Below, in pieces: positions 3,336 through 31,095 of a stretch of DNA of 31,095 nt (positions are counted from its first letter, which is position 1; each line of letters opens with the position of its first letter). The translations under genes were made by a program, and so were the position numbers. Location: positions 1 to 31,095 of the IMG/VR virus record IMGVR_UViG_3300029775_000377; one strand, written 5' to 3'. The DNA comes from a virus (Duplodnaviria > Caudoviricetes). Under the pieces are notes generated by a model. That model did not search any database, was not told where the DNA came from, and saw nothing but the letters and a program-made list of their open reading frames with translations.

Positions 3336-4184
3336 TCACGCCCCCCAATACGCTTGTGTACTTAAAATCGTCACGGACAAGTTGTCAATCCCGCTTGTTG
3401 CGTCATACCGATATAAGTTATCCCCCTAATATGCTTTAAGCCACTTAGGGGGATACGCCATAAGGTTATTGATGTTACTTGTCGCGCCACCGCTTATCAG
3501 TTTGACGCGCTTATTACCATCCGCTGTGGTAATGATAATCACATCCCCAGCGTGCATTGTTGTGTTAATCTGCATTAGCTCGCGACGGTTGACGTCGTAC
3601 AGCGACGGGTTTGTGACGGTACCTGTTGCCCTAAATGTTACCGTAAGCCCCATTGGCACGGCGGACGGATTATTGACGTTACCTATCAAGGTATTAACCT
3701 TTTTTGTCACCGTAAACGGGTCGGTAATTTGCAGCGGAAATCTTATACCGCCTTGCCAAATAGCAAACTGCGTGAGGTTGTCGTCGAGCGCGTAAAACTT
3801 TGGGTCAGGGCAAATGAGGGAAATAGTCGCCGACCGCACCACTCCGGTTTCTTCGGTATCGATTTTCTCAACATAATAATTTGCTTTGCGTCCGCCGCCG
3901 CCATCATAAGCGTAAAGTGCGCCTTTGCTTCGCGGCTGGAAAAAGCTATATAGTTTATCGCGCTGCGCCTGATAGTCGCTGAATATCTCAACGGTAATAA
4001 CAGGGTTCCTCTTATTTGCCTGCGAGCCGTTATAATTTTCCCCGTCCTGCCCGCTGTTCTGCGAAGTGTTCACCGTGTATTCGGCACTGGAAAGCCCGTC
4101 TGTACTTGATAAACGTATCGGGTCGCCGTCGTATGTAAATTCTATTGTTTCGCCCTGTTCATTCTCACAGACAACCTGCTTCAT
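3336..4184 (-). pseudogene. Distal tail protein (Dit, Sipho_tail family) interrupted by an in-frame TAG at 3426-3428
   Basis: Dit motifs (GQDG..Y, L...F.P...G.L, LICPDP.FY, GTVTNP.L). After WLKAY-TAG the frame continues GDNLYRYDATSGIDNLSVTILSTQAYWGA-TGA, the typical Dit C-terminus, ending 1 nt before the next ATG at 3334. Confidence 0.8.
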
Positions 4185-16676: not shown

Positions 16677-17069
16677 ATGAAAAAGGTTTATCCCATTATC
16701 CTCGCCCCTGCGAAAATTGGATACGTGGTATTTGTTCCCGACCTTGAAATTAATACTCAGGGTCACGATATTGCTGAAGCGATTGACATGGCTCGTGACG
16801 CAATCGGCCTATGGGGGATTACAGAACAAGACGCCGGTCGGAAAATACCTGAACCGTCAACTGCTAATGTAAATCATAAGCCCGAAGAAATTGTAACTTT
16901 GGTCGATATTGACTTTGACGCTTACCGCCGCGCAAATGATATGCGGACCATCCGAAAAAATGTTACAGTCCCCAGTTGGCTGAATGACCTAGCCGAAAAG
17001 TCGGGGGTTAATTTTTCTCAGGTTTTGCAAGATGGTTTAAAACAGCGGCTGCACGTTGTTGACCGGTAA
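16677..17069 (+). CDS. hicB: HicB-family antitoxin with C-terminal RHH-type DNA-binding region (130 aa)
   Basis: YP.I......GY.V.VPDL...TQG....EA..MARDAI, IP.PS, RKNVTVP.WLN..AE..GVNFSQVLQ..L; GGAGGTG RBS. Confidence 0.95.
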   Translation: MKKVYPIILAPAKIGYVVFVPDLEINTQGHDIAEAIDMARDAIGLWGITEQDAGRKIPEPSTANVNHKPEEIVTLVDIDFDAYRRANDMRTIRKNVTVPSWLNDLAEKSGVNFSQVLQDGLKQRLHVVDR

Positions 17070-25560: not shown

Positions 25561-25896
25561 TTAATTTTCTCCTTTATATTTTAAAAATGAGGTTTGTATT
25601 TTAAGCATACGTTCATAATTTGCTTTTACTTCGGGGATTGTATAACCTTTATCGTCTATGAAAATCCACTTGTTTTGATAATCAACACTTGCTTCCTGCC
25701 ATTTTCCCTTTGCTTTTTTTACCGCAAATGTTATCCATTCCTCTGTTTTCCGAATAGCTTCCGCGTTCTCGTATGAATATAAAAACATGAGTTTAAAGAG
25801 CTTTCTAATTTTGGTAAGCGTTTGGTATATTATGAGGTTTCCTGGATATATTTCGGCGGTAAAATTGCCTGTTGAAACAGTTATGCTATCAGTCAT
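25561..25896 (-). CDS. Hypothetical AT-rich protein (111 aa)
   Basis: ATG overlaps the DUF2800 stop (ATGA); its end carries the RBS of the SSB gene. Confidence 0.7.
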   Translation of the reverse strand: MTDSITVSTGNFTAEIYPGNLIIYQTLTKIRKLFKLMFLYSYENAEAIRKTEEWITFAVKKAKGKWQEASVDYQNKWIFIDDKGYTIPEVKANYERMLKIQTSFLKYKGEN

Positions 25897-27179
25897 TTTA
25901 CCGCCACATCCTTAAAATCACTTGCCGCGTCGTGCGGGTGGTACGGTGGCCGCTTGTCCGACTCCTGTACAAGCGCCGGCTTTCCGGCCGATACAACAAC
26001 ATGTTTACCGGCGACCTCCGCAAATTTGCTTTTGCCAAGCGTCTTTTCAACGGCCGCAAGCGTCAGCGGCTTGCGTTCATAGAGCATTGCTTCGTCATAC
26101 CCGGCGGCCTCGATATCCTTAAACGCCGTATCCATATTGTCAAATACCCGCTTGCTGCGCCCCTCGACTGCTTTCCAGCCGGGTATTACCTTGCCAGCAA
26201 GCGTCGCAGTCAAAGCATACTCTTTAAGGTCTGCCGCCCATTTTTCAAGGTCGACGGCTTTTTTCAGCACTTCGCCGACTTCACTGTCTGTTAAAAGCGT
26301 CGGTTTCGGGAATTCTCCGCTTTCTGCCTTACTCGGCGCCGCAATGCCCTTAAAATCTTCAAGGGCGGTATTTTCCTTTGCCCTCGCCCTGCATGTATAC
26401 CGTGCCCGGCAAAACCGTCAGGTATCCGGTGAAGGTTTAAACTCGCCCTCACCTTTGAAAGCTTGATCTGCTAAAGGCTTTACGGTAAATACACCCCAGT
26501 TTACAAGGCTGTCGCGTGATATTTTCCACTCTTTTACCGTATCACCCTCAGCGCGCGGCTGGAATACAGTTAAAATGATATTCGGTGTATTATAGAATTT
26601 GCCGTAAATCTCAATAGCCCCAAGACCGTAAAGCATAAGCTGTGGATTATTTTCTACTTCGACTATCACGCCTTTGCCGTATTTGAAATCAATGACATGC
26701 AGCGTATCACTGCCGATTATGATACAGTCGCCTGTGCCGAAGCCCTCGGGCGCATAGCGTGAATAATCAAGTTTGCGCTCCACTGCGATTGTAGGTTTTT
26801 CCTTATATGACATATATACTTTGGATATGTAGTCAAGGTAATCGTCCGTACAGCGCTGCATTTCTTCACTGTAGTGCCCGTCCTTTTTCAGCTTATTCAT
26901 ACGGGTGTTGAATGTACGCGGCCCCATCGGCTCTACAAATTTCTTGCGTACTTTAAGTTCCGCAATACTATGCGCGAGCGTCCCTTCGGCGGCATATTCG
27001 CTGCCGGTGTCGGGAAACTGTTCTTCAAGCCGCGCCGACGGTGTGCAGTGCAGCCAGCGCGCCGCGCCGGACGCGGATAAGATTGCATGTTTACGCGCTT
27101 TTGTTTTCTTAGGTCCTACACTTTCGCATGGGATACGCCCCTCACACATTCCATCGACAATATCATCCGCAGCATTCAT
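25893..27179 (-). pseudogene. DUF2800 Cas4-like PD-(D/E)XK nuclease, one 428-codon frame with in-frame TGA at codon 254 (26418-26420)
   Basis: HA.LSAS...RW..C.PS, A.EGT.AH, GFGTGD, VIDFKYGKG, N.QL.LY.LGA; then PDT-TGA-RFCRARYTCRARA... continuing in frame into the track ORF 25893..26270 (PGWK.VEGRS.R, GKPALV.ESDKRP). Confidence 0.85.
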
Positions 27180-28924: not shown

Positions 28925-29764
28925 TCACTGAAAAACGACGTTATAGGACTTGTCCAACACAATCGGGCTCTTCCTGCCTTGAGTTGTAATCCAGTTGCGC
29001 ACCATGTCAAGCACCGGCGCTTTATAACGGTCGTAGTCGTCGGAGTGGCCGTTCGCTGCAAACGGAGAATGCTCAATCAGACTCGCCGGGACGTTCAGCG
29101 TGCGGATAATTGCTGCTATGGCCTGCGAATGTGGCTTGCCTGATTTGGAGTACACGCCAAGGGCTTTTGCGATCTGTTCTTTGTCGTATGTCTTTTCGCA
29201 TTCAACCGGGGCACCGGGAATGTCGATTCCGAGTTCGCCATAGACCTGCTTATAGATTCCGGACACGGCGGCAGCGGAACGCTTTTCATCGACACCGGCA
29301 GCAAGCCACGCCTTTTTCAGAATTTCCACAGAGTGGTTAACCGGAGGTAAAGCTCGGTATTTTGATTTCGATGGCGTTGCTCCATGGCGTAAAAATGCAT
29401 TTGCAAGTACCTTTTGTGCCTTAAGCTGATACTGGACGAGCTTGTCCACTACTTCGGGATGTTCTTTTTTCATGGTCGGGGTAATCGTAATTTTTGCGAG
29501 CCAGAGTGGAACAAATTCGTTGTCAATGCACTGGACGCTTCTGACCTGCCCTTGAAATTTCAAGGGCAGGTTTTTCGCGCCCTTACACAAAACAACATCT
29601 TTTTGGATTTTCTGAACTTGCGTGTCCTTTTGGCTTTCAGTTAGGCCAATCCCTTTACATATGTAGGACACACCCGCATAGATTTTCCCGGATTTTTCGT
29701 CTTTCGCCGCCATGAGTTCGTCGCCCATGAATGGAACTGTTTTGACTGATAATTGGTTTTCCAT
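28925..29764 (-). CDS. Phage antirepressor with P22 Ant-like N-terminal domain (279 aa)
   Basis: K.VPF.G.ELMA......KIY.GV.YIC.GIGL...Q...Q..KI..D.VL, FVPLWLAKI.ITP.M....PE...KL..YQLKA..VLA.AF; AGAAAGGA RBS. Confidence 0.82.
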   Translation of the reverse strand: MENQLSVKTVPFMGDELMAAKDEKSGKIYAGVSYICKGIGLTESQKDTQVQKIQKDVVLCKGAKNLPLKFQGQVRSVQCIDNEFVPLWLAKITITPTMKKEHPEVVDKLVQYQLKAQKVLANAFLRHGATPSKSKYRALPPVNHSVEILKKAWLAAGVDEKRSAAAVSGIYKQVYGELGIDIPGAPVECEKTYDKEQIAKALGVYSKSGKPHSQAIAAIIRTLNVPASLIEHSPFAANGHSDDYDRYKAPVLDMVRNWITTQGRKSPIVLDKSYNVVFQ

Positions 29765-29779
29765 GAAAAACTTCCTTTC

Positions 29780-29808
29780 TTGAAATTCCCCTCCCACTGG
29801 TGTAGAAT
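29780..29808 (+). promoter_or_regulatory. Promoter of the oppositely oriented accessory gene
   Basis: TTGAAA (29780-29785), 17 nt, TAGAAT (29803-29808); GGGAGG RBS at 29815-29820. Confidence 0.65.
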
Positions 29809-29823
29809 CGGGGCGGGAGGGAG

Positions 29824-30177
29824 ATGCGCAATATGAAAATTAAAGAAGAACAGCAGGCACTAAAATTTTTAATTGAAACAGCTGAAGGCTGTGATAGTAG
29901 CAGTTTTTCGAAAACGGTTTTTGACCATTTTGGGGCTGACACAATTGATGTACTGGACATCCTCAAAGATGATGGCCTCATAGATTTCCGCCGAATGGGA
30001 AATGAATTGCATTGTTTTCGAATAACTCCGGGTGGGCAAAAATATTTTGATATAAAGCGGCAAACAAAACTGGAATATTGGAAAAAGTTTGCTGTTTCGC
30101 ACATTTGGAACATCATTGAATCCGCTATCGTTGCTTTTATCACATCCCTGATAACCTTAAAACTAAGCGGCAAATAA
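29824..30177 (+). CDS. Accessory protein: winged-helix-like N-domain plus C-terminal membrane anchor (114-117 aa)
   Basis: L..L...GLI..........FRITP.G..YF wHTH-like pattern, then hydrophobic IWNIIESAIVAFITSLITL; AT-rich; start 29824 or 29833. Confidence 0.75.
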   Translation: MRNMKIKEEQQALKFLIETAEGCDSSSFSKTVFDHFGADTIDVLDILKDDGLIDFRRMGNELHCFRITPGGQKYFDIKRQTKLEYWKKFAVSHIWNIIESAIVAFITSLITLKLSGK

Positions 30178-30247
30178 AGTAGGAAACAACGGCGGATTCA
30201 ATGATTCTCAGTACAGGGTCAATAACTTTTGCCTTAGTTGAATGCAT
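30140..30247 (-). CDS. Small hydrophobic peptide (35-39 aa), convergent with and overlapping the accessory gene
   Basis: AGGTGA RBS 8 nt before the ATG at 30247 (or GTG at 30259); MHSTKAKVIDPVLRIIESAVVSYFICRLVLRLSGM; directly follows the Cro-like gene. Confidence 0.5.
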   Translation of the reverse strand: MHSTKAKVIDPVLRIIESAVVSYFICRLVLRLSGM

Positions 30248-30281
30248 CCATTTTTTCACCTGCCTTTCCGTATGTAAGAAC

Positions 30282-30452
30282 TCAGGCCGTTTTCCGTGTT
30301 TTCTCGAATGCGTCGATATCATCTTGACGAATTCGATAATCACGCCCGATTTTGATTGCAGAAAGTTTTTTCTTGCGGATCCAATCCCAAACAGTAAGAG
30401 TTTTTACTTTGTACATTGAAGCAATTTCTTCACAGGTAAAATATTTGGGCAT
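30282..30452 (-). CDS. Cro/excisionase-like HTH_17 DNA-binding protein (56 aa)
   Basis: YFTCEEIA.MYKV...TV..WIR..KL.A.KIGR.YRI...D...F; first gene of the leftward early operon; AAAGGGGG RBS. Confidence 0.88.
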   Translation of the reverse strand: MPKYFTCEEIASMYKVKTLTVWDWIRKKKLSAIKIGRDYRIRQDDIDAFEKTRKTA

Positions 30453-30480
30453 AAAAATTCCCCCTTTCATTAAAAAATAC

Positions 30481-30641
30481 TTGCGTTTACTTCGGCTTAG
30501 TGATATACTTCGATTGTCGGTAAAAGTAGATCATTATTCGAAGTAGTACGTTTCTCGTTTTGTATTGCTTCGGTATTCGTGGTATGCCTATAATATACAA
30601 CGAGTTTCGTTTTATGTCAATAGGTTTGCTACGCAATTCGT
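30481..30641. promoter_or_regulatory. Lysis/lysogeny switch region with opposing promoters and operator repeats
   Basis: Leftward TTGACA (30620-30615)-17-TATATT. Rightward TTGCGT (30481)-17-TATACT (30504) and TTGCTT (30565)-18-TATAAT (30589). Repeats (A/T)CG-N4-TCG(T/G) at 30510, 30548, 30570, 30600, 30631. Confidence 0.7.
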
Positions 30642-30666: not shown

Positions 30667-31095
30667 TTGACAAAAATGTATGAAATTTTTGAACAACTTT
30701 TAAAGAAATACAATGTTACTCCCTACCGTGTCCATAAGGAAACAGGTGTTCCTCAAAGTACATTGAGTGATTGGAAAAACGGAAAGGGTGTTCCTAAAGT
30801 TGATAAATTAAAAGCAATCGCCGATTATTTTCATGTGTCGGTCGATTATCTTCTTGGAAATGAGCAAAAAGAAACGCTCGCCCTTACAGAAAAGGACGAG
30901 CGCGATATATCCAAACGATTAGATCAAACACTTAGTGACCTTGAAAATTCGCAAGGTGCTTTAATGTTTGACGGTGAACCGCTTGATGATGTTACAAAGG
31001 AATTGCTGATTGCGAGTTTGCGTAAAGACCTTGAAATGGGAAAAAGAATAGCCAAACAAAAATTCACGCCTAAAAAATATCGAAAGCCTGAGTGA
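30667..31095 (+). CDS. XRE-family prophage repressor (CI/ImmR-like, ~139-142 aa)
   Basis: HTH V.K.TGV.QSTLSDWK.G...PK.DKL..IADYF.VSVDYLLG; C-terminal L.FDGEPL...AK.KFTPKKYR domain; divergent from the early operon. Likely start is the ATG at 30676. Confidence 0.92.
   Translation: MTKMYEIFEQLLKKYNVTPYRVHKETGVPQSTLSDWKNGKGVPKVDKLKAIADYFHVSVDYLLGNEQKETLALTEKDERDISKRLDQTLSDLENSQGALMFDGEPLDDVTKELLIASLRKDLEMGKRIAKQKFTPKKYRKPE

Follow-up and report, generated by a model that had tools for sequence, protein, structure and literature searches.

Temperate phages must disarm their own defences at induction, the mechanism of most antidotes is unknown, and the small hypothetical genes of Clostridia-type prophages are mostly unexplained. 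Here we ask what two such genes do at the right end of a provirus (IMG/VR record IMGVR_UViG_3300029775_000377, the whole 31,095-nt stretch of which is referred to below as the window), where gene A is set backwards among the early lytic genes and gene B runs into it tail to tail, coding for what looks like a short copy of A's hydrophobic end. The answer that we favour, and hold to be slightly more probable than improbable, is that the two form a conserved module in which A is a membrane effector expressed in the lysogen, likely anti-phage, and the look-alike B is a lytic antidote that silences it.

Two converging genes at the right end of the window

The provirus record, which is the window itself, has head, tail, replication and immunity genes (Pfam annotation), and its right end reads antirepressor (-), gene A (+), ORF B (-), a cro-like HTH_17 gene (-) and cI (+), an order that is identical throughout in one related locus (L002). 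The features of this region are:

28925..29764, - strand: antirepressor (Pfam P22_AR_N, E 2e-18), the next lytic-strand gene past the promoter-like site of A
29780..29808, + strand: promoter-like site of A, TTGAAA-17-TAGAAT, sigma-70-like (motif scan)
29833..30177, + strand: gene A, 114 aa (or 117 aa if started at the ATG at 29824), with a predicted winged helix and a long C-terminal helix with hydrophobic tail
29833..30045, + strand: predicted winged-helix domain (residues 1-71; modelled as three helices plus a beta hairpin)
30103..30159, + strand: tail helix of A, predicted to be transmembrane (mean Kyte-Doolittle value 1.81 over 19 residues)
30112..30125, + strand: left arm of a 14-bp inverted repeat, IIES codons of A (repeat search)
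30140..30177, both strands: tail-to-tail overlap of A and B, 38 nt (ORF coordinates)
30140..30247, - strand: gene B, 35-aa predicted single-helix membrane peptide (ORF list, hydropathy; frame and stop kept in a relative)
30192..30205, - strand: right arm of the inverted repeat, IIES codons of B (repeat search; broken in the X13 relative)
30256..30261, - strand: ribosome-binding site AGGTGA of B, 8 nt ahead of its ATG and common to an out-of-frame ATG at 30251
30282..30470, - strand: cro/excisionase-like HTH_17 gene (Pfam HTH_17, E 1e-11), directly upstream of B
30592..30620, - strand: likely early lytic promoter TTGACA-17-TATATT, its function inferred, with 11/12 consensus matches
30667..31095, + strand: cI-like repressor (Pfam HTH_3, E 3e-11; PHROG 8)

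A first-pass annotation of this DNA had placed A on the plus strand and the 35-residue B on the minus strand after the cro-like gene, with the overlap given above, and both genes are where it put them. The 38-nt overlap is found again in L003, L004, L010, L031 and L041. Because a named homologue of A comes from Cellulosilyticum, locus L004 is part of a Eubacteriales genome and 4/5 of the antirepressor matches are Clostridia phages, the relatives of the window genes point to Clostridia. Elsewhere in the window we observed a DUF2800 gene split in two (26418-27179 and 25893-26270, - strand, covering model positions 1-221 and 262-368) and a HicB-like antitoxin gene (16677-17069, + strand) on the strand opposite to the lytic genes.

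The annotation had also taken A for a winged-helix protein with a transmembrane segment, and modelling agrees. The predicted structure (pLDDT 83.8, from 11 sequences) has, besides three helices and a beta wing, a C-terminal helix of 40 residues, and the product ends in NIIESAIVAFITSLITLKLSGK; as this hydrophobic tail is preceded by a basic-aromatic patch, A is predicted to be a tail-anchored membrane protein, and in its relatives the tail helix reaches Kyte-Doolittle values of 2.0-2.9 over 17 residues. Fold searches with the model return generic wHTH domains (Z about 7, rmsd 2.3-3.1 over 63-65 residues) among which no solved structure stands out (best Z 7.8), the similarity to PadR and MarR being weak and of this generic kind only (Z under 8, E above 0.04), together with uncharacterised siphovirus proteins. 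We found no match for A in Pfam, NCBIfam or PADLOC and none to YjcQ or DUF2513, YjcQ appearing at E 0.044 in 1/11 members; among 15 A proteins there was one weak and no credible PADLOC match, the ESM Atlas held A in unnamed clusters only (0.92-0.93), and PHROG 12206, a family with no function or partner gene attached, matched it weakly (E 1e-4).

Such a fold invites another reading, namely that A, tethered to the membrane, regulates lysogeny or host physiology and is modulated by B through the helices on induction. The predicted winged helix would suit it, as would the position of A between cro and the antirepressor, a transcript of A that would run antisense to cro, and the lack of any defence-model match for A. 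We nevertheless consider a regulator unlikely, since some of the wHTH domains matched in the fold searches (kleisin, MukF) are binders of protein and not of DNA and, by inspection, an acidic stretch lies ahead of the wing; two further points against it emerge from the relatives described below.

The annotation's claim that A has a promoter of its own also holds up, as far as motifs can tell. Five sigma-70-like sites were found in the region where 2.8 were expected, so that a single site is weak evidence alone, but an extended -10 precedes A in 10/16 loci, where shuffling leads one to expect 0.53 (the promoter-like site of the window belongs to the 6 that fail this test), which suggests that A has an independent promoter. 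A strand opposite to the lytic operon, combined with a promoter-like site of its own, is a feature of effector/antidote modules that A would thus share.

The product of gene B (30247-30140, - strand) is MHSTKAKVIDPVLRIIESAVVSYFICRLVLRLSGM. A five-codon frame, MDAFN, at 30251-30234 (- strand) opens at the out-of-frame ATG 4 nt behind that of B and shares its ribosome-binding site, and this competing start may lower or tune the translation of B. Matches to B in the ESM Atlas scored under 0.8.

Recurrence of the pairing and conservation of B

Does the arrangement exist outside the window? The first-pass annotation had proposed a search of prophages for the same architecture, and this search succeeded twice over, in the winged-helix relatives of A and in a second, unrelated family. 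Of the A family 12 representatives pass E 0.001, and the 10 of similar length were aligned, leaving out two long ones. Profile searches gave 16 other distinct membrane-tailed relatives, 11 of which lie beside a convergent membrane ORF, either overlapping it by 12-50 nt or set 2 nt apart from it, and in 9/11 pairs B has a ribosome-binding match of >=5. The 5 relatives lacking a partner occur in L014, L015 and L030, with no phage gene within the 3.3 kb examined, and these three loci were left out of the pair set, as were L003 and L032 for their soluble C-terminal domain; L017, L018, L022-L024 and L033 were dropped as weak, MarR-like or unrelated.

Several of these loci have peculiarities of their own. 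L014 and L015, from small genomes, have two convergent winged-helix-plus-membrane genes beside a RadC-like gene, with no B and no phage gene in the part examined. L003:2501-3064 and L032:1480-2031 begin with the same winged helix but continue into a soluble C-terminal domain, and each meets a soluble convergent partner (overlap 38 and 23 nt). L011 carries two modules in tandem within one early operon (625-927 and 1492-1824), with near-identical upstream regions and differing genes, and L031 likewise has two (574-954 and 1413-1757).

Other searches added less. Scans of viral contigs with single proteins and subsets for A and B returned nothing or little, GenBank phages gave little for A relatives and B (one match at E 1), and order-level genome searches for A/B loci yielded few new ones; a two-strand PIxVS pattern scan found 2 stretches, the module of L016 and a chance occurrence, and across 401 genomes of the phylum PHROG 12206 had matches in 2, one of them with stops inside the match.

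A second line of evidence comes from 80 loci selected by cI alone. These contained three more membrane-tailed A genes with other N-termini, all with a convergent membrane partner, and one of the three led to 80 loci, many of them near-identical, of a second A family that is coiled-coil and unrelated to the first. Here B lies beside A in 77/77 readable loci, those without a readable A frame (L117, L119 and L123) having been left out; in L117-L123 several A genes look frameshifted in their first part, and the B genes that were read, those of L118 and L120, are intact. A tail with a partner is thus also found behind coiled-coil and other N-terminal domains, so that the winged helix is not the shared part, which tells against A as a regulator.

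A census of 62 of the 80 cI-selected loci (the filter missed L089 and L095) gave a convergent partner for 17/21 distinct antisense genes, and we found that the antisense slot of the early operon holds varied cargo, like defence slots, the remaining point against a regulator. With one duplicate removed, membrane A genes had membrane partners in 6/6 cases and soluble A genes soluble partners in 10/10 (Fisher p 1.2e-4, some rows being related and the hydrophobicity cut of 1.8 having been set after seeing the data). Among the soluble genes, two that are antisense to the rest of the early operon code for DUF2321 zinc ribbons, each lying tail to tail with a small cysteine-pair gene (L054:3438-3920 with 3906-4076; L105:2347-2817 with 2795-2953); in L105 the motif QKYCSQCGTET of A stands against DKYCQYCGKAT in B, and one of the small partners has a weak zinc-ribbon model match. 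These pairs are possibly a soluble version of mimicry. The DUF2513 gene L058:3516-3887 and the similar-looking L004:2566-2919 have small, beta-rich-looking convergent partners with no resemblance to them, and to the left of cI in L041, L055, L072, L074 and L090 there are antisense genes with an N-terminal membrane helix and convergent membrane partners, some of these with two helices.

Is B kept as a protein? In the second family, and outside the overlap, B has pN/pS of 0.34-0.40 (p 0.002-0.008; three allele groups of 4, 17 and 4, groups under 3 alleles being dropped), the signature of genes under purifying selection as protein. The closest relative of the window copy, X13, is one 178-nt contig whose flanks match P0002, a protein 66% identical to A. 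It differs from window 30109-30199 at 12 positions without a gap, keeps the B frame with its stop changed from TGA to TAA, and prolongs that frame as DVVDLIVRIA against KVIDPVLRII in the window (a hand translation of a loose contig end). Moreover, the B of L012, which does not overlap its A, is identical to that of the window at 12/35 residues. Combined, sequence comparisons show that B is a real gene conserved as protein, as the reading of the first-pass annotation presupposes, and that the layout recurs across related prophages. A small conserved gene on the lytic strand, next to the effector or overlapping it, is another feature of effector/antidote modules, and B fits it.

Likeness of the two helices and the inverted repeat

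The annotation had further reported a perfect 14-bp inverted repeat, with likeness continuing past it at the codon level. Both were confirmed, and the likeness runs longer than was claimed. The repeat reaches 21 nt at 86%, and repeats of this kind are expected 0.01 times per window in 100 block-shuffled windows; the one other 14-bp arm pair in the window, at 29544-29571, is a perfect 28-bp palindrome without spacer inside the antirepressor gene. With 30158/30159 as the axis of symmetry, A and B are in register over their final 21 codons and their stops, with 10/21 residues identical (one of these a serine, encoded by AGC in A and by TCA in B), and past the fifth codon only 24/51 nucleotides agree.

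Across families the likeness is a matter of protein. Cognate B scored above the median of 41 other phage membrane helices in 25/26 pairs (13/14 diverse and 11/11 winged-helix pairs; the window excluded throughout), and cognate pairs had a shuffle-corrected z of 1.39, against 1.46 when non-cognate partners came from one motif group, 0.37 when they came from different groups and 0.01 in the controls, the motif groups having been defined after seeing the data. Permutation of the cognate pairing gave p 0.006 for all 26 and 0.054 for the 14 diverse pairs, and within families p was 0.10 (11 winged-helix pairs) and 0.34 (13 second-family pairs). Given the last three values we read helix likeness as a family-level trait, and pair-specific covariation is unsupported by these sequences, which is the outcome of the covariation test that the first-pass annotation had suggested. 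An overlap-masked version of the test was rejected, since shared truncation inflates cognate scores.

Single-genome comparisons vary in what they bring out. PHROG 12206 matches both A and B of L016, its sole 2 matches in that genome and the latter through its tail part, and also A of the window, L006 and L011. Scored against A's own tail, the window's B came second among non-self frames, one point below a tape-measure-like gene, and with a tail profile lacking the two closest sequences it ranked only 10th (1.7 bits), B not being singled out. In L004, L005, L006 and L010 B is longer and loosely like A.

It could be asked whether mimicry is needed at all. A and B might simply be inherited together, B having its own lytic job or an unrelated contact with A, or being harmful and A guarding against its leak, with the likeness left over from an inverted duplication long ago and added to by the composition common to membrane segments. 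In keeping with this, within-family covariation is not supported, any common ancestry of two convergent genes will have the appearance of an inverted repeat, the helices are rich in S/T and Ile/Val (S+T content 0.15 in A, 0.12 in B and 0.08 in controls, so that composition may explain part of the likeness), and many soluble pairs show no likeness. We doubt this account about as much as the regulator, since the likeness remains in pairs that have lost it at the DNA level and overlap by 8 nt or not at all (L184, L012), the class of B follows that of A in 16/16 census pairs, and zinc-ribbon A genes have small cysteine-pair partners.

The repeat itself raises a further possibility, already noted in the first-pass annotation, that RNA is the functional element, as a junction hairpin or processing site or through antisense interference alone, and that the B frame is incidental. 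The junction does fold on either strand (z -3.2 and -3.5), the 14-bp arm of the window exceeds the expectation from its two proteins and local codon use (p 0.022), and opposing transcription contributes in the Tha/Ith system (PMC11087260). However, 25/27 pairs have no arm beyond this expectation, the other exception being L013 (12 bp, p 0.04); X13 breaks the arm in B, while P0002 keeps IIES; the second-family B genes are selected as protein; and we found no Rfam match near threshold and no terminator-like site at the junction. We therefore regard an RNA element as very improbable. A conserved structured RNA or type I antitoxin RNA was rejected, base pairing not being conserved across relatives.

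By these alignments the perfect 14-bp repeat is a local feature of the window copy and not a family trait, most simply a recent homogenisation between the arms or a chance agreement of codons. Template switching is reported to homogenise inverted repeats (PMC8604942). A glutamate within both helices is missing in the other aligned relatives except P0002 and, in B, likely X13, a distribution that fits copying between the arms, although this is speculation.

Proposed mechanism and comparison with known systems

Returning to a defence gene and its antidote, we propose the following course of events. In the lysogen A would be made from its promoter-like site, backwards among the early lytic genes; it would sit in the membrane and assemble through its tail helix, and in this form act against a superinfecting phage. 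On induction the cro transcript would supply B and, by opposing the transcription of A, might silence A further. B, a headless copy of the tail, would pack into the A assembly and inactivate it in a dominant-negative manner. We favour this course because the same layout is proven to serve defence and antidote in Tha/Ith, TerI/anti-TerI and Tab/anti-Tab, and because a self-fragment inhibits SieB.

A broader version, which we put forward tentatively and with more doubt than belief, is that in Clostridia-type prophages each lysogen-expressed effector of the early operon has, tail to tail with its gene, a mini-gene for a decoy of the effector's assembly element, be it a membrane helix or a DUF2321 zinc ribbon, and that the decoy poisons the effector at induction. 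Convergence would make a quasi-palindrome of the two copies, through which template switching could carry effector changes over into the antidote; the shared IIES arm suggests this. If such pairs do work by self-mimicry, they would show an antidote arising from its target and indicate the surface by which the effector assembles, and the tail-to-tail, like-for-like signature would serve as a rule by which defence genes still without annotation, and the inhibitors that go with them, could be recognised from sequence in Clostridia-type prophages.

How does the pair compare with systems already described? A was compared with Tha, TerI and Tab through family models and fold, and with TerI and Tab by description. 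In S. aureus prophages Tha/Ith is an effector and small antidote whose expression switches between lysogeny and lysis, encoded like A and B on opposite strands, and antisense transcription adds to protein inhibition; Tha is, however, a HEPN RNase whose gene belongs to the cI operon, and it is ith that has a promoter to itself, so that the A/B arrangement is reversed, and the available text does not mention a likeness of Ith to Tha such as B has to A (PMC11087260). The closest layout is that of TerI/anti-TerI in Listeria phage 10403S, where the gene for TerI is set within the early lytic module but on the other strand, behind a promoter of its own (a promoter-like site in the case of A), and the overlapping lytic-strand antidote anti-TerI binds TerI; unlike A, TerI is a 65-aa terminase inhibitor with two antidotes, and neither a transmembrane segment nor mimicry is mentioned in the text at hand (bioRxiv 10.1101/2025.02.27.640495). 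Similarly, in Pseudomonas phage JBD26 the minus-strand, self-promoted defence gene Tab opposes the lytic strand and adjoins a lytic-strand gene, anti-Tab, whose product binds Tab, although Tab belongs to the late operon and targets tail assembly, and what is accessible of that report mentions no sequence likeness between the two (PMC10884400). Inhibition by a variant of the self is described for SieB/Esc/sas of lambda and P22 and for the S107 antiholin, in which an exclusion or lysis protein is inhibited by its own variant and the SieB/Esc switch is controlled by antisense RNA. There, as in B (10/21 residues in register), the inhibitor resembles part of the effector, but it is read in frame from the same gene, whereas B is a separate gene on the opposite strand and free to diverge (PMC3224144, PMC12197685). 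In the literature searched, mostly at the level of titles and abstracts, we found no separate convergent gene coding for a look-alike of its partner. Taken together, these comparisons make it likely that A and B belong to the prophage effector/antidote kind, with likely mimicry between their helices, and form a new variant of its layout.
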